Counted from the stretch's first letter, positions 29,850 to 48,152 are shown. The stretch is DNA of 64,000 nt from Methanomassiliicoccaceae archaeon (GCA_963827905.1 CAWHCB010000013.1:26300-90299); one strand, 5' to 3'. Numbers and translations: made by a program. Notes: generated from the letters alone by a model not told the origin.

Positions 29850-30129
29850 CTAATCCTCCATGACGAATCGCTTCAGGGTGCTTTCCACCAGTTCCCATGT
29901 AACCAGGGCGGGCTTCTCGAAAATGGTCACCTCGATCTTGTCGCCCTTGACCTCATATTTGCCCCTGAAGCTGATATGGAAACCGGCCACGTACGGTCCT
30001 CCGTTGAAATGCCCCTTCTCCACATCGCCCTCGAACTCCATGTCTATGGTCCTTGGCCAGCTTACGAAACTGTTCGAACTTCGTCTTCGGGTCCCCTTCG
30101 TACTTAAGGACATAGATACGACCGGTCAT
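29850..30129 (-). CDS. small hypothetical protein (frame interruption near 30055)
   Basis: MTGRIYVLKYEGDPKTKFEQFRKLAK in one frame continues as TIDMEFEGDVEKGHFNGGPYVAGFHISFRGKYEVKGDKIEVTIFEKP... in another. Confidence 0.35.
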
Positions 30130-30237
30130 CCATCTGTGAATGGGTCGGTAGGACTTAATAAAATGATGCAAGGCTAAGGATAATGATGGGTTAGCGATTA
30201 CCCTCCTGTGCTCAAGTTAGCTTGGTAAGGCGGTTGT

Positions 30238-31311
30238 ATGAGGATCGTCGAGGTGAATCCGTTCCATTATCCCTTCCTGGGAGGCATCGAGCACCGAGTG
30301 CACCACATCTCGAAGAGGCTGGCGAAGAAGCATGAGATGATCGTGCTGACCAGCCAACTGGAGGGGACGAGCAAGGAGGAGGTCATCGACGGCTATCGTG
30401 TGGTGCGTCTGCCCTCACGCTACATCGACATCTACAACCCGCCTTATGTATCGACGAAAGGCCTGACGGAGGCGCTCAAAGGTCTGAAGCCGGACCTGGT
30501 GGACTTCCATTACCGCTGGGCTCCGGACTACAACAGGCTGGCACGTCAGTGGACAGGGAAGAAGGTGTTCACGTTCCACAACACCTTCGGGGAGGGCGTG
30601 GGGGTGACCAGATTGCCATCGTTGGTCAACGACCAGATGATTAAGAGACACCTGAAGAAGTTCCCCAAGGTCATTTGCGTCAGTGAGTTCGTGAAGAAGG
30701 ACCTGGACCGCCGAGGCTTCGACCCAACCAGGACGGTCGCCATCCCCAATGGGATCGAGATACCTTGCACCGCGCCGGTCAAGGAGGAGGACTTCATCCT
30801 TTTCATGGGCCGTCTGGTGAACACGAAGGGTTTGGAGTATCTGTCAAGGCCATGAGATAAGTGGACTGTAAACTTGATCATCTGCGGTGGTGGTCCACTA
30901 CAGGACAAATTGACCAGGATGATCGAGAAGGAACGGTCTTCAGAGGAAAAGTTGAGATGACTGGAAGGGTGTGCGAGGAAAGGAAGTGTGAATTGCTCTC
31001 CTCTTGCAAGCTATTTCGTCATGCCATCGATATTCGAATCCTATGGCATCGCAGTGGCGGAGGCAATGTCCTATGGGAAAGCGATTGTTGCGACTGATGT
31101 GGGGGGCCTTCCCGAGGTGGTTCAAGATGGCGGTCTGCTCTGCAGGCCGAATAATCCAAAAGATCTTGCCATGAAGCTATCTACATTATTATTGGACGAA
31201 AACCAAAGGACGGAATGTGCAAAGCGATCAATGATATTGTCCCAATCATACACATGGGACTCCCGGTCTCCTAAGGTCGAGAAGGAATATTTGGATGCTA
31301 TGGCCTATTAA
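30238..31311 (+). pseudogene. family 4 (GT-B) glycosyltransferase, frame interrupted at least 4 times between 30845 and 30990
   Basis: The N-terminal domain is intact (MRIVEVNPFHYPFLGGIEHRV...). The C-terminal domain motifs are scattered over three frames: FMGRLVNTKGLEYL, VNLIICGGGPL, KVEMTGRV..ELLSSCKLF, VMPSIFESYGIAVAEAMSYGKAIVATDVGGLPEVV. There are two in-frame TGA codons in the starting frame. Confidence 0.7.
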
Positions 31312-31354
31312 CTTTTCATTCACTTTTAACTATGACATTCGGTAACAAAACTGA

Positions 31355-33838
31355 TCAGGTGGTGTTGATCATCCATTTCACTTTTTCCATCTGGGGGTAA
31401 TTGAAAATTCTCTCATAGATATGGTATGCTTTTTCGAACTGCTCAAGCGAGGATAATCGATTGCCGACCCTCGCCAACGCCTCTCCATACCAAACTCGAG
31501 CCATGGCCTCCAGTAAAAGACCGTTTGGCGTATCCTTCATCAATTCGAACGAATCCTCAAATGCCATCGAGCCATCAACCAATCGATCTTGGGTTGCCAG
31601 ATATTTTCCTTTAGCTGCTAAATAAAAACAACGAGTAGTAGAATGAAGGCTCCAGTTGATGCCCTTCTCGATTTGAGCCGCCTCATCATAAATCACTTTA
31701 GCCTCATCAAAATATTCATTTTTTAGGCACGCATAGAATACTCCAGTCAGACCTAGCAACATTGCATAGGGGGATTGGATCTCTTTTGCCGCTTCAAGAC
31801 CATTCCTTGCTTCTATTAGGGCAGTTTTATGATCTCCTAGGGCATCGTATACCAATGAACGATTAATGCTCGACCAACAAATATTTGCCAATTGGCCGGT
31901 CCTTTCACCGATATCGATGCTCTTGCTCAATCGCTCTACCGCCTCCCTCCAGTCCCCTATATGGAAATAAACCATTCCCGAGTAATAGCACGCTTCCATC
32001 TCCCCATAGAAACCTGGTGATTCTTCACTAATCCGCAATGCCTCATCCACCGATGCTAACGCTTTTTCAATCTTCCCCTGAGTCAAATAAACGTCACCGA
32101 GATAACAGTACAAGCGTGCAGTAAGATCATCGTTCTCAGCCAACAAAGAAGAGGAGATAGCTTTAGTATAGCACCTCTCAGCCTCATCGAAGTTCCCTTG
32201 CCAAAGGAAGACGTTGGCACGAGTTCCCAAAATCTCTGCCAATTCGTTTGGGTTGTTTGAGGCGGCATCCTCAGCCATGTTCAATCTTTCAAGTACATTT
32301 TCCATCTCTCCTCTCAACAGGGAGATCTCTGCCAGGTACCTAAGGGCACGGGCATCAATCTTTTCGATGCCGCTGAAATCAATTATTTCTTTGATCTGTG
32401 CTTCTGCATCGACAAAATTTCCAATCTGGATGTTCGCATACGCTAGACCCATCTTTGCCCTGCTCCAATAAGCATTTTTTTCGGATTGGTTCTCTGCGAT
32501 TTTTAAAATATTGATAAAATATGGAACAGCCTGGATGGCCGCCCCTTTGGCAACCAGTTCCTCTCCAGTACAAACCGCATATTTGACGTAACGGGAGTCG
32601 TCTTTCGCCTCAAAGAAATGGTAGGCTAGCAGAGCAGCTTTTTCTGGAAATTCTTTTTGTTCTAATGTCTCCCCAATCAAACGATGATACTCTGACCGTC
32701 TAGCTTTCGATATTGATTCATAAGTGATCTGACGGAAGATATGATGCCGGAATTGGTAACCATCCGATATTTCAGCTATCAAACCGTACATACTCTCCAT
32801 CCTGTCCAGTTCCTTAATGAGAATCAATGGTTGTAAATTGGATACCGTTTTAACCGTATCAACCTCAAAACGATAACCAACTACAGATGCTATTTCTAAA
32901 ATGCGTCTCTGCTCCGGTTTCAATCCTTCCAATCTTCTCAGGATTATCTCTTTTATGGTGGGGGGGATCTCAAGACGTTTCCCTGGAGATATTCTCCACT
33001 CCCCTCCCATCATTTCGATTATTCTAGAATTTTTTAATATTTTAATCGTCTCAATTATATATAATGGATTACCTTCACACTCGAAAGCAACTCTCTCAAT
33101 GACCTCCTTATTTGCATTACATCCTAACACGTCGCTAATTATCTCAGCAGTATCTTGAATTTCCAACCCACCCAACTCGATCTCTTCGACCAATCCCTCC
33201 CTTCTCATCAATCTAAGAACATCAAATAACGAGTTGGTGTTCTGTCCTTCCAACGGTAAGATTTCCTCTGTTCGATAGGTTCCAAGAATTAGTATTTTTT
33301 CGGATTTCACGTTCCTGGCCAAGAAGTGAAGTAATTGGACGCTTTGAGGATCAGCCCATTGTAGGTCCTCAATTCGAATAATCAAAGGTCTTAACCGACT
33401 CCTCTCTTTAACAAATTCCAAGGCTGCAAAAAGAATACGATCTGGGCTCCATGTTGTATCAATTACATGAGTTGATTCCTTATCGCTGCAAACATAGTTC
33501 TCTCCAAAAATCGTTTTTGTTTCCTTTACCTTATCTACAGCACCAATTATTTTTGGTAATGGTTCTGATATATTAGCCTTGTTAAACGCCTCTATAAAGG
33601 GGAGATAGGGTAAAGGGATACCAGGTAAACAGCTACCCGATATACAAGAGCAATTAGTGCTCATTGCTCTCTCCAGGAATTCGTCAGCCAATCGAGATTT
33701 TCCGATACCGGCCTCTCCCGATATCAAAACTAACGTCCCCTTCCTGATCATCGTATTGCTGAGGTATGAAAAAAGGCGATCCCTTTCATCGATTCTTCCC
33801 ACAAAACGATTAGGGACGTTCGTTTTAGTTAACATCAT
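31355..33838 (-). CDS. STAND-class NTPase (AAA_16-type P-loop) with C-terminal TPR array and no N-terminal effector domain
   Basis: 827 aa, uninterrupted. FVGRIDERDRL...LVLISGEAGIGKSRL (Walker A at about residue 42), LIIRIEDLQWAD (Walker B), a winged-helix-like middle, then about 350 aa of TPR-like repeats. Confidence 0.8.
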   Translation of the reverse strand: MMLTKTNVPNRFVGRIDERDRLFSYLSNTMIRKGTLVLISGEAGIGKSRLADEFLERAMSTNCSCISGSCLPGIPLPYLPFIEAFNKANISEPLPKIIGAVDKVKETKTIFGENYVCSDKESTHVIDTTWSPDRILFAALEFVKERSRLRPLIIRIEDLQWADPQSVQLLHFLARNVKSEKILILGTYRTEEILPLEGQNTNSLFDVLRLMRREGLVEEIELGGLEIQDTAEIISDVLGCNANKEVIERVAFECEGNPLYIIETIKILKNSRIIEMMGGEWRISPGKRLEIPPTIKEIILRRLEGLKPEQRRILEIASVVGYRFEVDTVKTVSNLQPLILIKELDRMESMYGLIAEISDGYQFRHHIFRQITYESISKARRSEYHRLIGETLEQKEFPEKAALLAYHFFEAKDDSRYVKYAVCTGEELVAKGAAIQAVPYFINILKIAENQSEKNAYWSRAKMGLAYANIQIGNFVDAEAQIKEIIDFSGIEKIDARALRYLAEISLLRGEMENVLERLNMAEDAASNNPNELAEILGTRANVFLWQGNFDEAERCYTKAISSSLLAENDDLTARLYCYLGDVYLTQGKIEKALASVDEALRISEESPGFYGEMEACYYSGMVYFHIGDWREAVERLSKSIDIGERTGQLANICWSSINRSLVYDALGDHKTALIEARNGLEAAKEIQSPYAMLLGLTGVFYACLKNEYFDEAKVIYDEAAQIEKGINWSLHSTTRCFYLAAKGKYLATQDRLVDGSMAFEDSFELMKDTPNGLLLEAMARVWYGEALARVGNRLSSLEQFEKAYHIYERIFNYPQMEKVKWMINTT

Positions 33839-33995
33839 AAGTAATATCCGGAATACTTTTATTAAACATGTGATGGTAAAATGAGCAAATAGTAACTTAA
33901 GGATTAAAAAATTAATTAAAAATTTTTACGAAACACAAAAACATCAAATAATAGGGATGGGTATTTTTCAATAAGAAACTAGGGGGGGTTATACT

Positions 33996-34562
33996 ATGGA
34001 TAGATTGAGGAAAGAGCTTAAGGATATTATCGATGAGCAAATTAAGTTTCTGCAGGACAAAGGGATCGATGTAACAGGCATCGATTTCTTTGTCGACTAT
34101 GGAGATTTCGACTCTGAGGATATTTGTCATCTGCTCCATCTTGTGAAGTCATTTGATGAAATGGTACTCAACGGAGTTGATTTTAATCACTGTTTGATAT
34201 CCTATAAAGGAAAGCGCTTCCTTTTCTACAATGCGCGATTGAATTTGATGAAGTTTTCATCTCCAAGCCCATATGTGTTAACCCTTAGGAAACCCACAAG
34301 TCCGGAAACAATTGAAATTCAAGCAGGAATTGTTCCTCTGGCCATCCCAACAAAATGCAACTCAGGACACACCTTGGTCACAGCACCGAACGGGAACAAG
34401 GTTTGTCCTTATGCCACCCACGGATCTGATTATTGGTATTGCACAACCTGTGGGACTGTCCGATCAGGCACCAACATCACCCATGATGCTGGCGGAGACA
34501 GTGCGACCTGTCGTTGTAACGGTTCTCCGAATAGTTGCACGAAGATTAAGGGAAGATATTGA
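33996..34562 (+). CDS. hypothetical protein with Cys/His-rich C-terminus
   Basis: 188 aa. The C-terminus reads CNSGH...CPYATHGSDYWYCTTCG...CRCNGSPNSC. It is divergent from the STAND gene across a 157-bp AT-rich spacer and lies 31 nt upstream of the protease gene. No family recognised. Confidence 0.5.
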   Translation: MDRLRKELKDIIDEQIKFLQDKGIDVTGIDFFVDYGDFDSEDICHLLHLVKSFDEMVLNGVDFNHCLISYKGKRFLFYNARLNLMKFSSPSPYVLTLRKPTSPETIEIQAGIVPLAIPTKCNSGHTLVTAPNGNKVCPYATHGSDYWYCTTCGTVRSGTNITHDAGGDSATCRCNGSPNSCTKIKGRY

Positions 34563-34593
34563 TCGGGAGAGGATTGATTTGGCAACAGCAAAA

Positions 34594-37310
34594 ATGAGGA
34601 AAACCATCCTTCCTTCGGTAATTTCTATTCTCATTGTCACACTATTTTTTGCATCTGCGGTTGCCATGGCCATCCCCAACTCACAATATGGTCCGTCCAA
34701 CGAAGGATCGTATGATGACTCCGGAATGAGCATGCCGATGGACATGGACAACTTGGTTAGATCCAATCATCCTGTTCCTCAGAATTTCACATCTCTTCAA
34801 AGTGCAGTCCTCAATTTCTGAAAAAGATATTTCTTTAGACGCTGCTTTAGGGGAAAAGAGGAATTATTATACAGGTTGGTGGGGCAAATGGAGCCTGAAT
34901 GTGACTGACCCGTCGGATTTCATGACTTTCACAAAGAGGGCCGAGTCATCCACATGCGAAATCTGGGTAGCTGACGATCTGTCATTCATGCCAACAGACC
35001 CGAGAAACGATGATCCCCTCAAGATATCGATCTCCGATGACCAGTTAAAACTTCTAATGAAGGAATGGGATAAGAATATCTACCCCCGAATGTCAGATCA
35101 GCTCGGGTCGCCATTACCAAGGGATGGAATGGACGGTTCATGGGCAGAATGGGGATATCCAACATTTGAGACGGACGTTCCAGAACGAATCATGATCATG
35201 GTCTTTAACATAGTGGACGATTCATTTTGGGACGCATCCCTCCCGTTTTATGGGCAGGGGTTCTTTGATTATTATTGGCTCGAGGGCTACGATAGGAACA
35301 TTATCCACATCAGTAGCTATGATTGGGCAGATAGACTTGGAGCGGATAAAGGGATTTATTCTTACCAGTATGAATATATTTTGACTCATGAATATGCTCA
35401 CCTACTGCATAATGATCACAACACCTGGCAAGAATTGTTCATCGATGAAGGATGTGCTGAATATGCCTGGTTGCTGATGGGGCACGGGGTCAATTACGTC
35501 CAATATGAGAAGATATCAGATTTCCTTGCCACCCCGGACAACTCACTTACAGTATGGTATGACCAATGGGCGACCATGAATTTGGCCGATTATGGCGCTG
35601 CCTACTTGTTCGTTATCTATCTGGCCGATCATTTCGGAAACGAGATCGTGCGCGACCTGATCGATACCAGTGGATCGGGGCATCGTTGCAGTGGACACGG
35701 CACTTCAAAAAAATGGCTATCCAGATTGGAGTTTCAATGAGGTCTTTAGATATTGGAGAATTGCCAACCTGATTCACTCTGACGACGTCGGCGATGGTTG
35801 GTATAACTATCGCTCGATTGACCTATCATCTTCATCATTGGGAGCTCTTAGGATTTACGATTATTCACACAAATCAATTCCCTGGATGGATTCAGCCGCA
35901 GAGGGCTTTGGGAATACGATCTCAAGGGGTGGTCTCGACACCGGGATATCGATTTTAGGTCCTTATGGAACGGATTATATCCACGTGACGAACAGTGGCA
36001 AGATATGGTCTACCTCCTTAGATCGAAGGGCGACCTCATTTAAATTCGATGGAGAGGATGTTATGCAGGGTTGGCAACGCCAACCTTGCCCAAAGATGCC
36101 CTTGGGTTGGGAAACAAAGAGTAATATGGCTTATTCAGCTCCTTGGCAGATCGATTATGAGGGGGTCCAATATCTAGACGCACACATCAAGGATCACGAT
36201 TTCAATGCGATCGCTCAATCGAACAACCTTGATGATGAGCCGGTGGACGAGCTATTATTAACACCTCAAATCAACGTGGAAGGAAAGACCGGGATAAGTC
36301 TGCAATTCGATTATTGGTATTATAGTGGATGGAGGGAATTCCCTAACGATCATCCAGACAGTTCGGCTGAGATCTTGTTATCTCTGGATGGGGGTGTGAA
36401 TTTCAATCCAATATATACCTTGGAAAACACCTATGCCGAGTGGTATACTTCCATCATCAGTCTTGATGAATATTCATACCATTCCGATCTAAGAATTGCA
36501 TTCCGATACTATGACAACAGCGAACCAGGGAATTGGGGGATGCTCTTCGTCGACAACGTAAAATTTCTTGAAACCCCAGACTCCTCATTATTCATCGAGG
36601 ACTTCGATAATGATATTTTGGACACATGGTGGTCAGATACCGGCGACAGCGTCGATTATTCCCTTTTGGGAGAAGTGAACGTTCCAAGCACCTCTTCTTC
36701 ACAACTTACCATCGAAACAATATGGAGGATGGAAACTCCATATGACGGCGGCCTCCTCGAAGTCTCTATCGATGGTGGTGTCAATTGGGAAGCATTATCC
36801 AATGAATACACTGTTGTTAACGAGGGTGAGGCATTAATGCCCGAAATTAATGACAGGCCAGTTTTAAATGGTGCGTACATGTGGACATCGTCCAATGAAT
36901 GGGTGCGAATGAGCTACGATCTTACCCCTTACTCGGGCCTTCATGTCCTCTACCGATTCAGGTTGATAACGGACGATGCCTTCACGGATTGTGGATGGTT
37001 CATCAGGAATATATGGTTCAATGGTGAATTGGTGGATCCCAGCACCATGACCCCCACGCCACATCCTAAGGATGACTGGATGGTGACGGTATATTTCCCC
37101 GCCTATCATGTCCCACACCGTCCCCATCTTCCAGCCAGGATAATAGAAATCGATCCAAAAGAGAGTGTGGAGACAGGGCTATTGAGATTGAGCAAATACT
37201 CGCAATATCCTGAAATGTACATCATAATCTCTGACACAATCGGACCGAACGACTATGGGTTTGGAATCATTGAAAAATCCAGTAAGTTAAAAATCGAAGG
37301 TCATGAATAG
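34594..37310 (+). CDS. large secreted zinc metallopeptidase (gluzincin, peptidase-MA/InhA-like), two frame interruptions near 34820 and 35675
   Basis: Signal peptide MRKTILPSVISILIVTLFFASAVAMA. The catalytic block is THEYAHLLHNDHNTWQELFIDEGCAEYA (HExxH plus a Glu about 20 residues downstream). It is followed by about 550 aa of beta-rich domains. Confidence 0.65.
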
Positions 37311-37334
37311 GAATCATTTCCAGTAAGAGAGATA

Positions 37335-37410
37335 TGGTGGGTCTGTCCAGATTTGAACTGGAGTCACCAGCACCCCAAGCTGGAAGGATACCAAGCTACC
37401 CCACAGACCC
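37335..37410 (-). tRNA. tRNA-Pro (anticodon GGG), CCA encoded
   Basis: Hand-folded cloverleaf: GGGTCTG/CAGACCC acceptor, CCAGC-TTGGGGT-GCTGG anticodon arm, TCCAG-TTCAAAT-CTGGA T arm. 76 nt including 3' CCA. Confidence 0.9.
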
Positions 37411-37439
37411 ATTGATAAAGGGGTTGAGTTTAAAGGGTT

Positions 37440-37632
37440 TCAACCGAGGGGTATGAGCTCCTCGAGCAGGTCCGAGTGCGATATGATCATGCGGCGGCAG
37501 CAGTAGCGCCTCAGACCGAGGTCGTCCAGCACTTCCTTCGGCGTCCTCTCCCATCTGCACCCTCTTGACGAAGGTCTGATAGGAGGAACCGACCACCTTG
37601 CCGCACGTGAAACATCTCACCGGTATTATCAT
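37440..37632 (-). CDS. rpoN: DNA-directed RNA polymerase subunit N (Rpb10 homologue), one extra base near 37535
   Basis: [32 protein letters not shown] then a frame shift. Removing one G from GAAGGAAG restores [31 protein letters not shown]. The span is 193 nt, which is 64 codons plus 1. Confidence 0.85.
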
Positions 37633-37636
37633 CTGC

Positions 37637-38038
37637 TCACCTGTAGCTCTTCTGCCTCTTCTTCCGAGCACCACGGCCCAGGGGCTTCTTCGGCAGCTTC
37701 CGGCGCACATCAGAGATGAGCATCGACCGGTCGTACTGCTTGAAGGCCCTTGCCAGCTCATCGTCCTCGTAATAATCGACGATGGCCTTAGCGATTGCGG
37801 TCCGGGTGGCCTCGGCCTGACCCATGACGCCGCCGCCGGCGACCGACACATCGATGTCCACCTTGGACGCTTTGTCCGGGATAAGAGCCAAGGGCTCCAT
37901 GATCTTCATGCGGGCCAGCTCCGGCTGCCATGCCTCCACCGGGACCGAGTTGATCCTCAATTTGCCGGATCCCTCGGTGATGGTGGCGCGGGCGACGGCG
38001 GTCTTCCGCTTTCCGCTCGTGTTGATGACTTTAACCAT
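37637..38038 (-). CDS. rps9: 30S ribosomal protein S9 (uS9)
   Basis: 133 aa. [10 protein letters not shown]...[18 protein letters not shown]... with C-terminal KKRQKSYR. Confidence 0.9.
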
Positions 38039-38920: not shown

Positions 38921-41900
38921 CTATTTTCTTTTCAACGCTTCCGGGTCCAGTCCGAAGGCCTTCATGTCCGCCTCGAGCTTCTGCATCACGTGGTCCCGGT
39001 CCCGCACCCATTCCTCGGACCAGAGGCGGACCAGCTTCCAGCTCAGATTGCCCAGCACGTCCGAGCGCAGGCGTTCCCGGTCCCGGGCGTTCTTCGCCTG
39101 GGCATAGGGCTCGCCGTCGCAGAGGATGCCCAGCACATACTTGTTCTTTACCTTGGGGTCCATGATGGCAAGGTCCACCCGGTAGGCGGAGGCACCCACC
39201 CGCCGGGCGACGGTATAGCCTCTCGCCTCCAACGCCTGCTGCACCGACTCCTCCAACCTCTGCCGCGACTTGGCCGCCTTGACGTCCTCGGGGGTGAGGG
39301 CCACCCTCTCCCCCTTGGCCCGGGCATAGTCGAGATAATCGCGCAGGAGCCTGAGGCCGCGCGGGCTGGAATCGTCCGTCTGGATGTCCTCCGGCATTAT
39401 CGAGCTCACCACCTTCACCGCTTTTTTGGCCCGGGTTATGGCCACGTTCAACCTTCGGGCGCCGCCCTCCTGGTTCAAGGGCCCGAAGTTCATGGTCAGC
39501 TTGCCGCCCTCGTCCCTCCCGTAGCCGATGGAGAACACCATCACGTCCCGCTCGTCGCCCTGCACGTTCTCCAGGTTCTTCACGAAGAAGGGCTCGACGC
39601 CTTCGGTCTCCCAGATCTGCTCGATCTCCGGGCGGTCGCGGGCCACCAGCTTGGTCTTGTACTCCAAGAGGTCGATGATGGCCTCCTGCTGGGCCTCGCT
39701 GAACGCCACCACCCCGATGGTGCGCTTCGGGTCCGCCAGGTAGAGCGCTATCACCAGCTCGGCCACCGCCGCCGCCTCGAAGCGGTTGTCCCTCTTCCCG
39801 CCCCGGTCATAGCGTCCGTCCGGGACATGGACGAACTCGATCCCGGCGTCCTTGCTGGACGCGTCGGCGTTGGGGAAGGTCTGCAGCCGGTTCTCGTAGA
39901 AGTGGTAGTTCGAGAACGATATGAGCGACTCCTGGCGGGAGCGGAAGTGCCACATGAGCATCTTCTGGCGCAGGCCGATGGTGCCGCACTCGTCCAGCAC
40001 GCTCTCCAGGTCCATCTGCTCCTCCTCGTCGTACTCGCCCTGGGCCAACTTGTCGAAGAACCGAGTCGGGGGCAGTTGTTTGTTGTCACCGACCACCACC
40101 ACCTGGGCCCCGCGCATGATGCAGCACACCGCGTCCTCCGGCACGATCTGCGAGGCCTCGTCGAACACCACCAGGTCGAAACGCAGCCCGCCGTTCTGCG
40201 GCGGCACCAGGAACTGGCTGACCGATATCGGGCTCATGAGGAAACAGGGCTTGAGCGACTGCACCGCCGGACCGCCCTTGATGAGCAGTTCCCGCACTGG
40301 CGCCCGGCGCTTGCTGGCATACTGCTTCTTCAGGTACTCCGCCCCTTGGGTCCAGGCCAGGTCTGCCATGCGCATCCTCTCCCTCACCCGGGACTGGAGT
40401 ATGGCGTTCACCCTCGTCCGCGCCATCTCGAGCTGTTGCCGGTCCATGTCCTGGAAGCGCCGCAGTCGGTCGTTCTGCTCGACCGGGTTGAACCGAGCAA
40501 GCAACGACTCCTGCTTGTAGAGCTCGTCCAACCAGAGCTGCCAGAAGCGGCGCAGGAACAAAGGCTCCAGGTCCCCCAGGTCGGCGTTGCGGCGCAAAAC
40601 CTCATCGTAGAACGGCCCCAGCCCTTCCTCGGCGATCTGCTTGCGCACCGCCAGGTACTCCACCCACTCCCCCAGTCGGTCCCTCTCGCGCAACTTGATG
40701 TCGGCCCAGGCGCTCACATCCGTCAACGGCACGCTCTCGGCCGGTCTGCCCGAGAGGCGCAGCTCCCCGGACAGGAGGAACGCCCGCATCACCTTGTGGG
40801 AGCCGTCCCAGGTCTGCAGGGAGCGTTGAACGGCCTCGTTCATCTGGGCCAGCAACGGCTGGTGGGGGGAGCCCTCCTCGGCCACCGCCCTCCAGCGATC
40901 GTCGTAGCCTTCCAGGTTCATGAAGGCCTCGGCATACTCCAACCCCTCCGACACCTTGGCCAGGTCGGTGGCCCGGCCGGAGTTGTAGCGCCCCAACCAG
41001 GGAACGCCCTGCTCCAGCGCCTTGATGCCCCGTTGGCCATCCTGCAGCTCCCGGAGCTTCCTCAGGTCGGTCAAGGCCTGCTCGTAGCTGAACGTCCCGC
41101 TGGTGGAGAGCCCCTTCAAAGTGGCGCTGTCCTTGCGGAACCCGGAGTTGATCATGCGGAACGCCCCGGAGTATTGCTTCTCGAAACGGTCCACCCATTC
41201 CGTCCCGTTCAGGTCGAACAGCTCCTTCTTGTAGCGTGAGGAGAGGTCCCGTTCCAGCTCGGGGACGCGTACCAGGGCGGACCGCCATCCGGCCACATCG
41301 CTCCCGATATCCCTTTATCTTGCCCCGGTCGAACCAGGCCGATGGCGGGGAGGGCGAACGCGCCGCCATCTGCAACAACGGGAGGAAGCGGCGCAGGGCG
41401 GTGACGTCCTGAGGGCCGGGCCAGACCGGTCGCCCCGCACAGTTCGGTCAATTCCTTGTCCAGTTGGTCCGAGGAACGGTCCAGGTCCTCCAAGGCGACC
41501 AACATCTCTCCCTGCTGGGCCAGGCTGAGCTCCTTCAGGTCCAGGTCGCGCCATGGGTGCTGTTCCCGCTTGGAGACCACCTCCCTCGAGGCGGCCAGTC
41601 GGCGCAACGTCGCCACGATCCGGTCCAGACGGGTCTGGTCCACGCCGAAGGGCTCCTTGAAATCGAAAACCAGTTGCTGATGGTCGTACAGCGATGCCAG
41701 CTCTCCATGCGCTTGGAAGGCGCTCATTCCCAGCGGCGAGCTCTTGCGATGCAACGCCAGCAGGTAGGAGTTGAGCTCGTTGCGAACGCCCTTGAGCTGG
41801 TTCAGGCGGTACTCCTCCGTGCCTTCCAGCTTGGCATCCGTGGCCTGCAGGGGACGGAGCATGCTGCCCAGCACCTCCTGCTTGTTCGGGGCGGTGGAAT

Positions 41901-43014
41901 GCAGTTCCAGGCAATGGTCGCCCAGGCCGCACTGGTCCAGACGGCGCTTCACCACCTCCAGTGCCGCCATCTTCTCGCTGACGAAGAGCACGGTGCGCCC
42001 CTGGGCCAGCGTCTCGGCGATGATGTTGGTGATGGTCTGGCTCTTTCCGGTCCCGGGCGGTCCTTGCAGCACCAGGTTGTCTCCGCGCTTCACCGCCTCG
42101 ATGGCATCCATCTGGCTCGAGTCGGCGTCCAAGACCTGGAAGGTGCGCAGCGGGTCCGGCTCCCCCAGGTCCGCCTCCTGGGATGGCTTCCTGAGCATCG
42201 TCGGGTCGCCGGCCATGGCCCTCAGCACCGGGTGCTTGGCGATCTCGCCCTCGTTGAGGAGCATGTCCTCGTAGATCACCACCTTGGCGAAGGTGAAGAG
42301 GCCGATGAAGGGCTGCTCCATGGTGACCGACCAACCGTTCCTGCGGGCGAAGAGCGGATGGAGGTTTTGCACATAGGCCTTGACATCAAAGGCGTCCAGG
42401 TCCTCGGGCGGTGATGGCAGGTCAAGGCCCAGTTCTTTCTTGGCCTTGAGGACCAGGGCGGGGTTGAGGAAGACCTCGTCCCCCTCCATCTGCAAGGTGT
42501 GCGCACCTATGACCCCCTTCTTGACCAGGGATACGGGCACCAGTAGGATCGGGGCGATGTGCATGTCGTCCTTCTCGTCCTCCTTCCAATGCAGCTCCCC
42601 GAAGGCCACGAACAAGGCGTTGATGCCCTGCTCCCGTTGGTAGCTGCCCGCTTTGTAACGGAGGTTGCCGAGGACCTTCTCGGTATAGGGGTTGAGGGTG
42701 GAGGGGGCCTCCTTCCCGCTCGCCAGGCCGACATAGTTGTACAGCTGGCACTCACGACCACCGCTCTGGCTCTCCTTGAAGTCGTCCCGGAACTTCTCGC
42801 ACCAGATGCCTTGCTTGATCCTGTCGACGACCAGGTCCTTGAACACATGCACCGGGTCCGGGTCGCGGACGATGAGCGTGGCCGACTTGGTCTTCTTGTA
42901 GTTCAACAGGCGGTTGCGCAGGCTAAGGTCGATCAGTTGGGCCTCCCATTGCTGCACCTTCTTGGCCACCACATCTTCCATCTCAGGACACCTCATCATG
43001 AAAGGGCGGAACAC
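38921..43014 (-). CDS. DUF4011-type superfamily 1 (Upf1-like, AAA_11/AAA_12) helicase with C-terminal restriction-endonuclease-like domain; two frame interruptions near 41412 and 41310
   Basis: N-terminus VQQWEAQLIDLSLRNRLLNYKK. Walker A LQGPPGTGKSQT, then VVFDEASQ, VVGDNKQLPPT, HFRSRQESLISFSNYHFYENRL and QGDERD. The C-terminus reads YRVDLAIMDP...LGILCDGEPYAQAKNARDRERLRSDVLGNLSWKLVRLWSEEW. About 1360 aa when the three frames are joined. Confidence 0.8.
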
Positions 43015-43062
43015 CGATTATAATCCATTGGTCCCTTTCCTTGGATGCGATGACTATTTTAA

Positions 43063-43081
43063 TTTAATATAAAATATTAAA
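43063..43081. promoter_or_regulatory. perfect palindrome TTTAATAT-AAA-ATATTAAA in a divergent promoter region
   Basis: Read directly. It lies in the very AT-rich 145-bp spacer between the helicase gene (-) and the TIM-barrel gene (+). Confidence 0.25.
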
Positions 43082-43159
43082 AAGTTTTATAAATCCGGAG
43101 AGGCGTTAAATAATACCTCCTTCATACCGATATGCTCATCCCAGGGTGGTATTCTATTT

Positions 43160-44244
43160 ATGATTAGATTCGGTCCGGCTGGTATCCCTCTTTCTTGTAA
43201 AGGTCGCACGATTAAGGACGGAATAGAGGATGTGCACAACCTCGGGCTGAACGCCATGGAGGTCCAGATGGTGCGCGTCAACGTCGTGGAGCGCTTGCCG
43301 GAGGAGGACGAGGTGGGCCTCACCCCCCTGGAGGTGCAGAGCGACCTCATAATCGAGATGGTGCGCCGCAAGGGCAAGAAGAGCACCATCATCAACAACG
43401 TCAACGAGAAGATCAAGGAGGACGACACCCTCATCACCCTGGCCTCAGGCCTGGTGCAGAACTTCCAGGAGCTCCATGCCCTGGGAAAGATGGGCAAGGA
43501 ACTGGATGTCGCGCTCTCCATGCACACCCCCTATTATATGGACATGACCTCCGGCAACGAGCTCACCCAGAAGAGCATGGACTCCATACGCTGGGCCGGG
43601 CTGCTCACCAACCAGATCGAGGGGGACCTGGTGGTCACCCACATCGGTCTTTATGGCGACCTGAGCAAGTCCAAGGCGGCCGAGGCCATCACCGAGCGCG
43701 TCGGTGGACGTGATGGACTGGTGGAAGAAGAACAAGCTCACGCCCCCACCTCGGCTTCGAGACCTCGGGCCGGCAGGAGGTCTTCGGCACCCTGGAGGAG
43801 ATCCTGGAGCTGAGCGACCAGATCGATGGAGTGGTGCCGGTGCTGAACTTCGCCCACCTGCATGCCAGGCAGAACGGCACCCTGCGGGAGCCGCAGGACT
43901 TCGGGGAGCTGTTCGACAAGGTGCGCCGCCAGGTGGACGGCCACTTCTACACTCACTTCTCTGGCGTGGAGCACGAGGGCGGGAACGAGAAGCGCGTCAC
44001 CCCCATCAAGAAGGGCGACCTGCGCTTCGAGCCGTTGGCCGAGTTCCTGGCCGACGAGAACCCCGATTGCACCATCATATCCAGCTCACCGCTCCTCGAG
44101 CATGACGCCATGTACATGAAGGTCATCTACGAGCGCATCCTCACCAAGAAGGTCTCCAAGGACACCAAGGTCCAGAAGAAGGACAAGGGAAAGTCCAAGC
44201 AGCAGGACGACTATGACTTCGACGACGAGGATGAGGACGATTGA
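43160..44244 (+). CDS. AP endonuclease family 2 / xylose-isomerase-like TIM-barrel protein with acidic C-terminal tail; two frame interruptions near 43700 and 43745
   Basis: MIRFGPAGIPLSCKG...NAMEVQMVR...SMHTPYYMDM...VVTHIG, then VDVMDWWKKNKLT in a second frame, then PHLGFETSGRQEVFGTLEEILEL...LNFAHLHARQNG...HFSGVEHEGGNE in a third. The tail is DDYDFDDEDEDD. The second shift sits in a C5 run. Confidence 0.6.
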
Positions 44245-44782
44245 AGGACACCTCCGCCTACATACTCAATGAGGTCAAGACGGCCATCGAGAAGGTGGAC
44301 GACAGCAAGGTCGACGAGATCGTCGACGCCATCATCGCCGCCAAGACCATTTTCATCTACGGGGTGGGCCGGTCGGGCCTGGTCGGGCAAGTCCTTCGCC
44401 GTCCGCCTGGTGCAGATGGGACTGGACGTGCACTTCGTCGGTGACATGACCACCCCCATCGTGGAGTCGGACGACCTGGTGATCATCATCTCCAACACCG
44501 GCGAGACCATGTCCGCGGTGCAGACCGCCAACATCGTGCGCCGCATCGGTGCCAAGGTGGTATGCGTGACCTCGGCGGCCCATTCCAAGCTCGGGATCCG
44601 CCTCGAACATCATTCTGGAGATCACGCCCTGCCGGGACGAGCAGCGAAGAAGTACGCGCCGCTGGGAACCATTGTTCGAGGTGGCCACGCTCGTCATGAT
44701 GGACTCCATGGTGCCGATGCTGATGACCCGGCTCAACCAGAACGAGGGATCATTGCGGCGCCGGCATGCCATCTGGGTCTGA
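44241..44782 (+). pseudogene. 6-phospho-3-hexuloisomerase (SIS domain), frame interrupted about 4 times
   Basis: IFIYGVGRSGLVG | KSFAVRLVQMGLDVHFVGDMTTPIVESDDLVIIISNTGETMSAVQTANIVRRIGAKVVCVTS | ASNIILEI | KKYAPLGT | LFEVATLVMMDSMVPMLM. These segments lie in alternating frames, with shifts near 44388, 44592, 44645 and 44675. Confidence 0.7.
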
Positions 44783-45919
44783 GCGCACCCTTCTGTTCCG
44801 GACCGTCTCCCCATAGTAGGGGTTCTGGAACTCGTCCCAGTATATCGCGAACGGTCGCTCCACCGCCTTGCCATCCCTGATGGCGAAGGCGTCGATGTCC
44901 ATCTGCACCGGGTCGATGACCATGGCGCTGTGCCAGGGACGATCGAACATGCGCATCTGGGTGTCGACATCGGTCTCGGAGAGGAAGCAACCGTGGCCCG
45001 GATGGGAATGGTACCAGCCGACCAGCACATAGTTGAAATCGGCGGTATCCAGTGTGCAGAACAGGTCCTCGAGACCCCCCCGTTCGAACCGAACGCTCAC
45101 CGATGTCGCCTCCAGCGAGGTGGTGGCCACGTCCTTGACGACGGTATAGGTCACGTTGCGGAAACGATGCACCGTCCCGAGCAGGAACCCCATCACCTCC
45201 AGCCTCTCCTCCTTCTTGCTCAAGGCATGGTTGCGGATCCGCTCCTCCGCCAACTTGGACAGGTAAAGCTCCAACCCCTGTCGTTCTTGGCGGCAATACT
45301 TCTTCATCGCCCCTCGGCCTAGCCATTTGTGCGGCGCTATGCGTTCCGATGGCGGCGGGACCTTGTCGGCGACCTCCAGGTCCTTCGATGCGATGATGGA
45401 GGGCGGTCGGATCAGCGGCACACCACCTTGGGCTGCGCCGGCACGACCAGGGGAACGACATCGACGCTCTTGGGCATTGAAGTACTGGGCGGCCCGGGTG
45501 CAGCTCTCCGTTCCGAACGGGCTTGACCCATTGGGGGATATGAGCAGCATCTCGATGCCCTTGATGAAGGTGACCAGGTTGGAGTTGAACGACCACCCCT
45601 CCAACAACCGGGTGCAGAGATGGCCCCCGTCCTCCGGCATCATGATGTTGGGATGGAATATCGGTGTGAGCCAGATGATCATGGGCTTCTCGAAGGGATA
45701 GTTCTTGGTGATGATCATGCGAAAGCGATGGTCGTACCGGTAAACCACCTTCTCCCCCTCCAGCACCGGACCGGGCACTTTGGGCAAGCCCACCTCGATC
45801 GAGACCGGGAAGACCGCCATCTCTGGGTCGGAGAGTCTCATGGTGGCGCGGGAGCCTCTCTCGCAGGCCGTGACCTCATTGGCCAATCTGGACCGGAGGA
45901 TCTCGATGGGTAAGGGCAT
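44750..45919 (-). CDS. fusion ORF: E2/UBC-like ubiquitin-conjugating domain + JAMM/MPN+ metalloisopeptidase domain
   Basis: Continuous 389-aa ORF. Residues about 1-150 read RSRLANEV...YPFEKPMIIWLTPIFHPNIMMPEDGGHLCTRLLEGWSFNSNLVTFIKGIEMLLISPNGSSPF. This is the E2 signature, with HPN at 89-91 and candidate catalytic Cys102. Residues about 205-365 read EERLEVMGFLLG...GWYHSHPGHGCFLSETD, an exact JAMM pattern of E...HxH-x7-S-xx-D. Confidence 0.8.
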   Translation of the reverse strand: MPLPIEILRSRLANEVTACERGSRATMRLSDPEMAVFPVSIEVGLPKVPGPVLEGEKVVYRYDHRFRMIITKNYPFEKPMIIWLTPIFHPNIMMPEDGGHLCTRLLEGWSFNSNLVTFIKGIEMLLISPNGSSPFGTESCTRAAQYFNAQERRCRSPGRAGAAQGGVPLIRPPSIIASKDLEVADKVPPPSERIAPHKWLGRGAMKKYCRQERQGLELYLSKLAEERIRNHALSKKEERLEVMGFLLGTVHRFRNVTYTVVKDVATTSLEATSVSVRFERGGLEDLFCTLDTADFNYVLVGWYHSHPGHGCFLSETDVDTQMRMFDRPWHSAMVIDPVQMDIDAFAIRDGKAVERPFAIYWDEFQNPYYGETVRNRRVRSDPDGMPAPQ

Positions 45920-46158
45920 CAGGCCCCGCCCTCGGGGTCGGGGATGAGCTCCAGTTCATCGCTGTCGGCGATGCCGGACTGGGCCACGCTCTGCTGCCCC
46001 CTAAGCAGGCGCTTGCCCTTGCGGATGACATAGGCCCCATCGTCCTTGTTCCAGAAGGCCGAAGCTCCCTGAATGATCTCCTGGACGGTGTTCTCCCCCT
46101 CAAGTTCCATATCGACGGTGCCGCCCGTCTCCGCGTTCCTGATCCTTACGTTCATCAC
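45919..46158 (-). CDS. small ubiquitin-like protein ending ...PEGG-A
   Basis: 78-79 aa (GTG 46158 or ATG 46155), with alternating hydrophobic pattern. The C-terminus is ELELIPDPEGGA*, a di-Gly followed by one Ala. Its TGA overlaps the ATG of the E2-JAMM ORF (TGATG). Confidence 0.7.
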   Translation of the reverse strand: MMNVRIRNAETGGTVDMELEGENTVQEIIQGASAFWNKDDGAYVIRKGKRLLRGQQSVAQSGIADSDELELIPDPEGGA

Positions 46159-46185
46159 AACGACCGGACCTGTGGGAGGGTGCGG

Positions 46186-46200
46186 GGCTTTTTAATGACT
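46186..46200 (-). promoter_or_regulatory. candidate archaeal TATA/BRE element upstream of the Ubl gene
   Basis: Minus-strand sense AGTCATTAAAAAGCC sits about 35 nt upstream of the Ubl ATG. It lies inside the only AT-rich gap (78 bp) of the cluster. Confidence 0.3.
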
Positions 46201-46236
46201 TTCGATTAGAATTAGGTTTACGGATAATGAGAATAT

Positions 46237-47024
46237 TCAGCCGTGGTTGGGGCAGTCCGGGTCCAGCTCCAACTCGTAGCATTCGCTGCGGACCAAGGAT
46301 CCATCATAGTACTCGACATGCCTGATGCAGGCCTCGGTTCGGCCGGAGATCACCTTCAACGCCTCCCGCACCTGCATAGCGGCGATGATGCTGCTGGTGG
46401 TGATCTCGGCGGCGATCTTGCGTTCGTGCACCACCACCTCCGCCCCGGTGCAGCTGAACCTCCTCTCCAGTATCCTCTGGTGGCTATTGTTCATGGCGCA
46501 TTGCAGACACGGCGTGGCGGGGGGCAGGACCACTTGGACCTTCCCTCTGAAACCGTCGGTCCCACCATCGATGTAGGGGACCTTGGCATGACAGGCCTGG
46601 GCGTTGAGGTGCAATCGGGCGGCGATGTTGTCCAGGCAACCGAATATGACGTCGTGACCAGAGAACATCTCCGTTCCCATCTCCTCCACTTTCCCCTCCA
46701 GGACGGATATCTCGACAATCCGGTGCCAGTTCGACGGCGCGCTGGGCCACGACCTCCACCTTTGCCCGGGAGCTCTCGGCATCGCCCTCTCGAAAGAAGA
46801 CGCATCGGTTAAGGTTGGACCGCACCACCCGGTCCATGTCCACTATGGTGATGTCCTGCACCCCTGAAAGGACCAGGTCCTTGACCACCTCGTTGCCCAG
46901 GGCGCCCGACGCCCACCACCAGGCACTTGGCCCTCCGCACCGCCTCCATATCCAACCAGCTGATGCGCCTGGACCGATCGTAACGGTCCTCATCGATGAA
47001 GCCCGGTCGTATGCGATCGGTCAT
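46237..47024 (-). CDS. E1-like ubiquitin-activating adenylyltransferase (ThiF/MoeB/UBA fold); two single-base frame interruptions near 46906 and 46718
   Basis: Three frame segments join to about 261 aa. Motifs: KCLVVGVGALGNEV (GxGxxG), DMDRVVRSNLNRC, GCLDNIAARLHLN, DGGTDGFRGKVQVVLPPATPCLQC (resembles the UBA3/SAE2-type adenylation-domain motif), RFSCTGAE (candidate catalytic Cys-Thr) and C-terminal DPDCPNHG. Confidence 0.8.
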
Positions 47025-47033
47025 TTTTCGACC

Positions 47034-48152
47034 TCAGGTCAGGATCAGCACCAAGGCGATGAACACCACGTAGAAGCCCCCTGCCAGGAGCAATGCCGAG
47101 GGCTTGAGCTCGGTGGCGGTGGCCCGGAGGTACAAGATGCTCGCCGACATCAACGCGATGAGGATGCTGATGGCCATGAGCACCCCCGTCGGTTCGCTGA
47201 GGTCGATGTGCCATGAAGTGAGCAATACCCCGATGGTGACGGGGAAGCAGCTCTGGAACACCATGGCCCCAGTTATGTTGCCGATGGCGTAGGTGTCCTT
47301 CCCCTCCTTCACCCACAGATAGCTGTTGAACATCTCCGGAAGCTCGGTGGCGATGGGGGCGATTATCAATGCCAATATGGTGGCGCTTATTCCGGCCACG
47401 GCGGCCAAGGCCTCTACCTGGTCGACGAAGATGATGGCCCCGATGATGATCCCGGCCAGGCCTAAGAACAACTGTATCAGGACCAAGGGCAGGTTCGGCT
47501 CGATCCCCATGACGCTTCCTTCGCACCATCCGTCCGGTCCTCATCGTCATCAGAGGCGTATTGGGTCAGGGGATCGGGACGGGCCCTTCCCGTTCAACCT
47601 ATCCCATGCGCGATGGAGATAGAGGTCCTCGCGGTCGCACTCGGCGCAGCTCTCTCCCGTCCGCAGCGTCACCCAGGTGTAGTAAACGTAGAGGGGGATC
47701 AGGCTGCAGCCCACGATCCAACGCACCCAATCGTACTCCTCCGGGACGAAGGCGGTCAGGGCGGCGATGGTGTAGGCGACGAGGAAGAACTTCAGGTCCC
47801 TCCGGATCAACCTACCGTCGATCGCCAGCGAGACCCTTTTTCGCCTTCTCCGATACAGTAATACCGCTATTCCAGTGACGAACAGGGCCAAGGTCGCCAG
47901 CATGAACGGCGACCCCAATATCGCCCCCACCCCGATCTCCTCCCCCGCCGCCCCTCCGACGAAAAGGATGGCTATCAAGGGGACCAACGTCTCAGGCAAA
48001 GCCGTCCCGATGGCGGCCAGCACGCTCCCTACCGCGCCCTCGGCCAGGTTCAGCTTCTTGCCCAACCATTCCACGGCGTTGGTGAAGAACTCACAGCCGA
48101 TCAATATCAGGGCGAAGCTGGCGATGAAGAGCACGATGTTCGTCGCATCCAT
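47034..48152 (-). CDS. Ca2+/cation antiporter (CaCA, YrbG-like); central loop disrupted near 47520-47580
   Basis: Two homologous halves each carry an alpha-repeat: GSVLAAIGTALPETLVPL and ILALIIAPIATELPEMFNS. The halves are in the same frame but separated by three stop codons. An acidic loop (SDDDEDRTDGAKEAS) is readable in another frame. Confidence 0.75.

Follow-up and report, generated by a model that had tools for sequence, protein, structure and literature searches.

An apparent E2-JAMM fusion in a Methanomassiliicoccaceae archaeon as a probable single-base artefact within an order-wide E1-Ubl-E2-Rpn11 operon

A 64,000-nt stretch of DNA from a Methanomassiliicoccaceae archaeon (GCA_963827905.1, CAWHCB010000013.1:26300-90299; hereafter, the window) contains an open reading frame (ORF) of 389 aa, 44750-45919(-), in which Pfam detects both the UQ_con domain of ubiquitin-conjugating E2 enzymes (aa 64-142, E 4e-11) and a JAB domain (aa 218-322, E 1.5e-12), next to genes for a ubiquitin-like modifier (Ubl) and an E1-like activating enzyme. 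This arrangement was described in an earlier note as a novel E2-JAMM fusion within a compact conjugation module resembling Bil-type operons. We asked whether such a fused protein exists and what kind of system the locus encodes. It is highly probable that the locus is an ordinary, order-wide E1-Ubl-E2-JAB operon of four separate genes, in which the fusion is an artefact of one spurious base and for which the mechanism can be proposed by homology with Caldiarchaeum.

The window encompasses a genuine four-gene ubiquitin-like tagging operon, comprising an E1, a small ubiquitin-fold protein, an E2 and an Rpn11-like protease, all on the minus strand, with motifs and domains that lie far beyond what could arise by chance. 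The E1, a ThiF/MoeB-sized ubiquitin-activating enzyme (46237..47024), was recognized through Pfam ThiF matches on two separate ORFs and adjoins a CaCA transporter gene, whereas the ubiquitin-fold modifier (45919..46158) is defined by its ORF, 81 homologues and an AlphaFold2 (AF2) model. The stop codon of the Ubl overlaps the start of the E2 (TGATG). The E2 gene (45412..45919), delineated by the UQ_con match, homologue alignment, AF2 and Foldseek, contains an extra nucleotide at 45457..45458, identified by alignment with relatives. The JAMM metalloprotease (JAB, 44750..45421), supported by Pfam JAB and PDB matches, begins at a GTG at 45421, overlapping the corrected E2 stop by 10 nt, and adjoins a SIS gene. 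Such short overlaps probably couple the E2 and the JAB translationally.

The individual components bear out the view that this is a ubiquitin-type conjugation module rather than a MoaD/ThiS-MoeB sulfur locus, with a ubiquitin fold, a UBC fold, an Rpn11-like JAMM protease and a eukaryote-like E1. The Ubl consists of 79 aa (78 aa from the ATG at 46155) and carries the previously reported C-terminal PEGG followed by Ala (...ELIPDPEGG-A), with the ELxPDPEGG end invariant across 81 homologues. In the Ubl, the last Lys/Arg precedes the GG by 25 residues. Its fold was settled by structure prediction because sequence searches were not significant, neither in Pfam (YukD, 0.0035; ubiquitin, 0.02) nor in a sequence-only profile search of the PDB (ubiquitin, E 0.1-1.5). 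The AF2 model (pLDDT 94.6) adopts the beta-beta-alpha-beta-beta-beta topology of a beta-grasp domain, and its best fold match in the PDB is Caldiarchaeum ubiquitin (CsUb; 6fnn_C, TM 0.86), followed by SUMO, ISG15, NEDD8 and ubiquitin. The best 50 fold matches all belong to the ubiquitin family, for example Ub, SUMO, NEDD8, ISG15 and Hub1; neither MoaD nor ThiS appears.

The E2, already named as such by NCBI and JGI, has an HPN motif at residues 89-91 and a catalytic Cys102, and none of H89, P90, N91 and C102 varies among 35 sequences. Its best phmmer matches in the PDB are UBE2T and UBE2C (6e-10, with the Cys aligned), and its AF2 model (pLDDT 90.2) shows a UBC fold that Foldseek matches to Ubc9, Ubc12 and Rad6 at probability 1.0. 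The JAB possesses the catalytic Glu (EVMG) and HSHPGHGCFLSETD, with the catalytic E, HxH and D invariant across homologues, as well as some 50 aa of conserved N-terminal extension. The protein is Rpn11/CSN5-like, its best PDB matches being Rpn11 (3e-12), CSN5 (9e-12) and 6fju, the Rpn11-like protein of Caldiarchaeum (5.5e-11). The NCBIfam desampylase model scores only 29.6 bits, far from its cut-off of 130.

The operon is standard in Methanomassiliicoccales/Thermoplasmata, where it is conserved and vertically inherited. The order E1-Ubl-E2-JAB was found in 72 of 82 loci, with the E1 detected by tblastn (72-74 matches), and GTDB species encoding the operon account for at least 419 species-level matches. 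Across the order, it resides in a chromosomal context of SIS, AP endonuclease, TrpRS and PheRS genes; SIS flanks 70 of the 82 loci, AP endonuclease 66 and TrpRS 42, and the related locus L001 is syntenic. This fixed context, together with the breadth of the matches, points to a housekeeping function passed on by vertical inheritance. A scan of all frames of the 64-kb window and of 85 related loci found no RING cross-brace pattern (C3H2C3 or C3HC4), in agreement with the earlier observation that the cluster includes no RING/E3-like ORF of 60 aa or more. The operon is barely mentioned in the searchable literature, where our search for ubiquitin or E2 in Methanomassiliicoccales or Thermoplasmatota yielded nothing specific apart from the Rpn11-like protein of Methanomassiliicoccus luminyensis noted in 2015 (Fort et al. 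2015, PMC4453063). The statement that such a system is unrecognized in this context was overstated, given its presence in more than 400 GTDB species, the existing NCBI and JGI names of the E2, and that 2015 report.

A role in antivirus defense of the Bil (Iyer type 6d) or CBASS Cap2/Cap3 kind, in which the Ubl would be attached to invader proteins, is quite unlikely. The four activities (Ubl, E2, JAB and E1) are indeed those of the defense systems, and Bil/type 6d loci (Iyer-Burroughs-Aravind) likewise group these components in a single operon that has no E3, but the proposed Bil-type resemblance does not hold beyond this. According to Iyer et al. 2006 (PMC1779556, Table 1 row 6d), type-6d E2s are devoid of the classical HPN His and show a conserved His on the C-terminal side of the Cys, whereas the E2 in the window retains an invariant FHPNI. 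The order E1-Ubl-E2-JAB differs from that of Bil operons as well, and throughout the archaeal order the operon keeps to one housekeeping neighborhood rather than lying in a variable defense island or mobile element. PADLOC v2.0.0, the 2023 library of which may be without Bil models, produced weak matches of the E1 to CBASS E1-E2 models, spanning the generic adenylation domain only, and weak generic matches of the JAB to JAB models, but none for the E2 or the Ubl. CBASS Cap2 (an E2-E1 fusion)/Cap3 (a JAB) and the E2-E1-JAB triple-module proteins of Iyer type 6a share the same chemistry and offer precedents for domain fusion, but the known fusions there always include the E1, whereas the components in the window are separate. 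The NCBIfam model 6A-MBL cap2_3 reached 37.7 against a cut-off of 320, and no CD-NTase or effector gene was detected among the neighbors of the operon.

We now turn to the ORF described as an E2-JAMM fusion. It joins E2 residues 1-154 to the complete JAB by way of 12 out-of-frame residues, giving the peptide ...ERRCRSPGRAGAAQGGVPLIR... across the junction. The E2 core and JAMM motifs and the respective Pfam domains are present as described, but they occur in a single ORF because of one extra nucleotide at 45457/45458, a T or C in CGATG[TC]GTT, which lies 46 nt ahead of the E2 stop codon and outside any homopolymer. Homologues place the frameshift point after ERRC. The base is missing in the alignment from five relatives (L005, L006, L007, L008 and L087), and is the sole gap between the window and L087, an Illumina contig with 96.5% identity over 1458 nt (L086 and L087 were found by exact-protein look-up of P0193, a 99% identical Ubl). 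Past 45457/45458, the alternative frame encodes the conserved tail of the E2 family and reaches the conserved TGA. With the base removed, the E2 becomes a stand-alone protein of 168 aa (stop TGA 45414-45412), 76-82% identical across 100% of its length to stand-alone E2s of 168-169 aa, and the JAB a separate 223-aa protein from GTG 45421, the point at which some 85 stand-alone homologues of 213-225 aa also start. At the syntenic locus L001, the E2 and JAB genes are likewise separate (168 aa and 213 aa, respectively). Across 80 species loci, not one of the 81 E2 ORFs scanned carries a JAMM motif, and metagenome contigs contained no exact match to the junction, whether or not the extra base was included in the pattern. 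Judging from these sequence comparisons, the spurious base puts the last 14 E2 codons out of frame and causes read-through into the overlapping JAB frame, generating an artificial 389-aa ORF; the fusion is peculiar to this sequence record and does not characterize the gene family.

The extra base is not an isolated irregularity. From 41.3 to 46.9 kb, alignment with relatives revealed at least 11 single-base indels that are specific to the window and strike the E1 (two of them), E2, SIS, AP endonuclease and helicase genes, all of which are intact in the Illumina relative L007. Extra bases were placed at 45457/8, 46711, about 46906, 44384, 44596, about 44670, 43708, 43740, 41300 and 41412. Further indels elsewhere in the window split the aspartokinase and DHDPS genes of lysine biosynthesis. 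Once the insertions are removed, dN/dS values are 0.06-0.15 and there are zero in-frame stops; therefore, the indels are assembly errors rather than signs of gene decay, and as a set they look typical of an unpolished long-read assembly. Pseudogenization was rejected on the grounds of the low dN/dS and the absence of stops, and programmed frameshifting in view of the relatives that lack the base and of the like indels in unrelated genes.

The alternative is that the base is a true mutation and the strain makes a genuine E2(1-154)-linker-JAMM protein. We regard this as most improbable, although no stop interrupts the ORF at the junction in the recorded sequence, the inserted base falls outside a homopolymer, and E2-MPN fusions known elsewhere make the architecture biologically possible. 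Genuine E2-MPN fusions, P0046 and P0280, occur in one uncultured archaeon (GCA_964609045.1), each with UQ_con followed by JAB in one polypeptide; P0046 aligns with 92% of the window ORF at 36% identity, and P0280 keeps both the tail of the E2 and the N-terminal extension of the JAB, as expected of a stop-loss fusion. However, the window ORF is not of this kind: P0046 and P0280 reside in other loci without Ubl or E1 neighbors, possess extra C-terminal domains (PQQ-like repeats and a Zn ribbon), and in each, the catalytic motif is missing from one of the two domains. Moreover, the base belongs to a series of window-specific indels that also break the E1 of the same operon, conserved neighbors and lysine-biosynthesis genes, there is no sign of relaxed selection, the closest relative lacks it, and a fusion beside an E1 broken into three frames would not work as a system anyway. 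The claim of a new E2-JAMM architecture should thus be dropped. Because the single-base indels of the window can yield both false fusions and false split genes, similar findings in the window need to be compared with relatives.

The E1 itself illustrates the second type of error. The adenylase described as close to UBA3/SAE2 is indeed of the ThiF type, but does not form one ORF; searched with the L001 E1 by tblastn, it is distributed over three reading frames (46809-47024, 46484-46993 and 46237-46782), with the breaks caused by two inserted bases, one at about 46904-46909 and the other at 46711, seen against L005, L006, L007 and L086. The corrected protein is 261 aa long, matching the intact 261-aa E1s of L086 and L007, and matched segments in relatives span 241-261 aa. 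In 73 sequences, Cys172/175 (CxxC), Cys191 (SCTG loop) and Cys257 are invariant. The adenylation domain matches those of the eukaryotic Uba1, UBA7, UBA3 and SAE2 at about 1e-24, better than MoeB (3e-19), with which the E1 aligns end to end without an extra domain. At 261 aa, and reaching the end of MoeB, the protein has no C-terminal ubiquitin-fold domain (UFD), nor does it contain an inserted catalytic-Cys domain. NCBIfam matches all fall far below their cut-offs (ThiF, 118 vs 275 bits; MoeB, 105.6 vs 266; UbaA, 83 vs 450), a rhodanese domain is absent, and there is no MoaE or ThiG gene near the operon. The compact MoeB-like E1 with a crossover-loop Cys, the beta-grasp modifier ending in GG and the JAMM protease recall the SAMP/UbaA/HvJAMM1 system, which, in contrast to the window operon, has no E2. 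A reading in which the Ubl and E1 serve chiefly in sulfur transfer (as a MoaD/ThiS-MoeB pair or with a SAMP/UbaA-like dual function), with the E2 and JAB as accessories, fits the MoeB-like size and alignment and the sub-threshold NCBIfam matches, but is hardly credible given how far these matches lie under cut-off, the better scores of eukaryotic E1s, the missing rhodanese domain, the exclusively ubiquitin-family fold matches of the Ubl, and the strict co-inheritance of an Rpn11-like protease and an E2 with invariant catalytic residues.

The operon belongs, as a member without an E3, to the already known class of archaeal eukaryote-like Ub/E1/E2/Rpn11 operons. The Caldiarchaeum/Asgard-type operon, reportedly described by Nunoura in 2011, comprises Ub, E1, E2, an srfp RING E3 and Rpn11. 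The operon in the window shares with it a modifier of ubiquitin fold, with GG followed by a short pro-peptide, for which CsUb is the best structural match; a classical UBC E2 with HPN and Cys; the operonic arrangement; an Rpn11-like JAMM protease, with CsRpn11 (6fju/6fjv) among its best matches; and an E1 adenylation domain nearer to eukaryotic E1s than to MoeB. It differs in that a RING E3 is absent in or near the operon, the JAB lies within the operon and is co-directional, and the host belongs to a euryarchaeal (Thermoplasmata) methanogen lineage. Furthermore, the 261-aa E1 lacks the UFD that Caldiarchaeum and eukaryotic E1s use for E2 recruitment. In Hennell James 2017 (PMC5654768), the E1s of Clusters I and II carry a C-terminal UFD and those of 'Cluster III' are UFD-less; the window E1 resembles Cluster III. 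The ubiquitylation system of Caldiarchaeum subterraneum has been biochemically reconstituted (Hennell James 2017, PMC5654768; Fuchs 2018, PMC6043591).

By homology with the Caldiarchaeum system, we infer each chemical step and the targets as follows. The Rpn11-like JAMM would trim the C-terminal Ala of the Ubl, exposing Gly-Gly, and would later strip the modifier from its targets; 44 of 78 relatives encode a Ubl already ending in GG, and trimming is therefore not universally needed. The compact E1 would adenylate the Ubl, probably forming a thioester on the invariant Cys191, and the Ubl would be handed to Cys102 of the E2 and then onto lysines of cellular proteins, either E3-free or with an E3 encoded elsewhere.

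More broadly, we consider it plausible, with slightly more doubt than confidence, that the operon represents an order-wide, chromosomally fixed form of E3-independent ubiquitylation, in which a MoeB-sized, UFD-less E1 serves a classical HPN-type E2, forming an intermediate evolutionary grade, with the E2-less SAMP/UbaA systems on one side and the E1-E2-RING systems of Caldiarchaeum and Asgard archaea on the other, and functioning in housekeeping protein modification in methanogenic Thermoplasmata. The content that holds true is modest but useful, namely, a conserved, E3-less, minimal-E1 Ub/E1/E2/Rpn11 operon, which could be an experimentally accessible example of archaeal ubiquitylation without an E3. 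If the broader proposal is true, this lineage, which includes cultured Methanomassiliicoccus, would offer a tractable organism in which to study pre-eukaryotic ubiquitylation in vivo.

As read in the window (ORF list and Pfam), the module comprises, all on the minus strand, a 389-aa ORF at 44750–45919 with UQ_con (aa 64–142, E = 4e-11) and JAB (aa 218–322, E = 1.5e-12) matches, a 79-aa ubiquitin-fold modifier (Ubl) at 45919–46158 ending in PDPEGGA, and E1-like sequence in three overlapping ORFs of differing frames (46237–46782, 46484–46993 and 46809–47024), two of which match ThiF. All motifs quoted in an earlier note on this DNA are present, and the ThiF matches bear out its E1 adenylase, but that gene is broken across three frames in the window record, which casts doubt on whether the continuity of E2 and JAB is genuine.

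The E2-JAMM fusion, the main claim of that note, is an assembly artefact. About 85 close homologues of the 389-aa ORF found by protein search are all stand-alone JAB proteins of 213–225 aa, starting near query residue 168 and covering only its C-terminal 53–57%. One base off this frame, the window encodes …VPLVVPAQPKVVCR, followed by TGA, which is the conserved C-terminus of the E2 family (…AQERRSVPLAVPVQPKVVCR in the stand-alone E2 P0091), and the frame-corrected E2 of 168 aa is 76–82% identical to proteins of 168–169 aa across 100% of its length. In the alignment, the junction reads CGATGTCGTT in the window, CGATG-CGTT in the related loci L005 and L007, and CGATG-TGTT in L006; L008, more diverged here, has the identical one-base gap. 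The closest relative found, the JGI Illumina contig L087, is 96.5% identical to the window over 1458 nt with this extra base as the sole gap, and encodes a stand-alone 168-aa E2. Since these relatives lack the extra base, the true E2 (45919→45412, minus) and JAB (223 aa, 45421→44750, minus, starting with GTG at 45421) are separate genes overlapping by 10 nt, and the 389-aa ORF consists of E2 residues 1–154, 12 out-of-frame residues and the complete JAB. None of 81 E2 ORFs from 80 GTDB species loci also contains the JAMM motif.

Comparison with three relatives revealed 11 private single-base indels in the window at 41.3–46.9 kb, affecting E1 (~46906, 46711), E2 (45458), SIS (~44670, 44646, 44596, 44384), the AP endonuclease (43740, 43708) and the helicase (41412, 41300). 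Gene decay as their biological source is ruled out: once the insertions are removed, the affected genes contain no in-frame stops and show dN/dS of 0.06–0.15 against the Illumina relative L007, indicating normal purifying selection. L007 has a single frame for every gene hit, and the nanopore MAG L005 carries its own frameshifts at different places. A codon-model scan flagged further frame switches window-wide (candidates at ~585, 5004, 6067, 6244, 7349, 9054, 18944, 27614, 55911 and 58594), those confirmed against relatives being the 11 within 41300–46912, and Pfam matches split aspartokinase (6215–7348/6840–7607) and dihydrodipicolinate synthase (8393–9157/8388–9281) across frames, a pattern characteristic of an assembly that was never polished. 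The CaCA Na+/Ca2+ exchanger (47034–48152, minus) is likewise read as two ORFs (158 and 200 aa, one Na_Ca_ex domain each) with several indels against relatives at the junction (47502–47560), probably another frameshift. The closest GTDB genomes, the Microflora Danica MAGs L005 (CAWBKY010000010.1) and L006 (E2 identity 94–95%), have private frameshifts in TrmO, TrpRS, E1 and helicase, so that public long-read MAGs of this clade share the quality problem. Fusions or split genes from the window should therefore be compared with relatives before they are believed.

Two genuine E2-MPN fusion paralogues do occur in an uncultured archaeon (GCA_964609045.1): P0046 (L004:6548–8152), with PQQ-like repeats, has the E2 catalytic Cys replaced by His (GGDVHLGY) and an intact JAMM motif, and P0280 (L085:460–2508), with a Zn ribbon, has an intact E2 Cys and a degenerate JAMM (YHSAPNDE). 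This complementary degeneration recalls UEV/E2 and MPN−/MPN+ pairs, an analogy suggesting that the two form a heterodimer.

The module itself is real and ubiquitin-type, as the earlier note had proposed. The Ubl is predicted to adopt a beta-grasp fold (pLDDT 94.6), and its best PDB fold match, the ubiquitin of Caldiarchaeum subterraneum (TM 0.86, 24% identity), ranks ahead of SUMO, ISG15, Hub1, NEDD8 and ubiquitin. The E2 model (pLDDT 90.2) matches Ubc9, Ubc12, Rad6 and UBE2S with probability 1.0, sequence searches align its catalytic Cys with UBE2T and UBE2C (6e-10), and H89, P90, N91 and C102 are invariant, upholding the E2 core reported before. The JAB, with invariant catalytic residues, best matches Rpn11 (3e-12), CSN5 and the Caldiarchaeum Rpn11 homologue (5.5e-11). 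Its N-terminal extension of ~50 aa (45272–45421, minus; RPPPPxERxxxHKWL, with Pro, His and Trp nearly invariant), conserved in the family (alignment A1) and absent from Rpn11 and CSN5, could serve to dock the E2 or the Ubl. The corrected E1 is MoeB-sized (261 aa), with invariant CxxC, SCTG (Cys191) and C-terminal Cys; it reached no NCBIfam cut-off and, in line with its earlier likening to UBA3/SAE2, best matches the active adenylation domains of the eukaryotic Uba1, UBA7, UBA3 and SAE2 (~1e-24), ahead of MoeB (3e-19) and ThiF (4e-18).

SAMP/UbaA, CBASS and a sulfur-carrier pair were rejected on PADLOC, NCBIfam and Ubl fold matches. The suggested resemblance to Bil-type (type 6d) operons, whose E2 family lacks the HPN histidine (PMC1779556), was also rejected: the window E2 keeps this histidine, the context is housekeeping, and neither E2 nor Ubl has a match in PADLOC v2.0.0, a 2023 library that may lack Bil models. 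The locus would work like the Caldiarchaeum/Asgard operon, but it lacks the RING E3 and E1 ubiquitin-fold domain (UFD) of the latter; consistent with the earlier reading, a pattern scan found no RING-like pattern in the window or any locus examined. The locus fits the intermediate class of Fuchs et al., in which Rpn11-like JAMMs share operons with homologues of Ub, E1 and E2 (PMC6043591), and may belong to what Hennell James et al. term 'Cluster III', which has no UFD (PMC5654768).

All steps of the mechanism we propose are drawn by homology from the Caldiarchaeum system, which has been reconstituted (PMC5654768, PMC6043591). The JAMM protease would trim the terminal Ala of the Ubl, E1 would adenylate the Ubl and probably hold it as a thioester on Cys191, Cys102 of E2 would receive it, and E2 would join it to lysines, unaided by an E3 or with the help of an E3 whose gene lies elsewhere; the protease would also reverse conjugation. 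Among 78 related Ubls (L005–L084), 44 end exactly at GG, and the others extend beyond it by A, V, N, NR, SR or a longer tail. Trimming would be dispensable in these 44 and thus lineage-specific, and the protease is probably mainly a deconjugase.

The novelty claimed for this archaeal context is overstated: NCBI and JGI already annotate E2s of this family, and the Rpn11-like protein of Methanomassiliicoccus luminyensis was noted in 2015 (PMC4453063). We found no description of the operon in Methanomassiliicoccales in the searchable literature. Its sole sizeable intergenic gap, the A+T-rich E1-Ubl spacer (46159–46236, 78 nt; …TTCTCATTATCCGTAAACCTAATTCTAATCGAAAGTCATTAAAAAG…), could contain an internal archaeal promoter for Ubl-E2-JAB. 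Elsewhere in the window, a low-G+C island (30000–38000; 41–50% versus ~61%), its end adjoining tRNA-Pro (37335–37410), encodes a GT4 glycosyltransferase fragment, an 827-aa AAA_16 and TPR (STAND-like) protein, an InhA-like MAM-domain protein and several ORFs without Pfam match; this segment was probably integrated or acquired horizontally.

In the syntenic Methanomassiliicoccales MAG L001, PheRS-TrmO-TrpRS are followed by ThiF (260 aa), a 78-aa ORF, and separate UQ_con (168 aa) and JAB (213 aa) genes, with a 4-nt overlap between the latter and the E2 stop, and then by SIS, AP endonuclease and a 1365-aa helicase, a neighbourhood like that of the window except for MntP in place of the CaCA transporter. 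E2 relatives occur in at least 419 GTDB species, the best 80 all being Methanomassiliicoccales or Thermoplasmata. The order E1-Ubl-E2-JAB is kept in 72 of 82 loci, with exceptions mostly at contig ends, and the SIS and AP-endonuclease flanks in 70 and 66, respectively. This conservation of order and flanks indicates that the operon serves a vertically inherited, chromosomal function.
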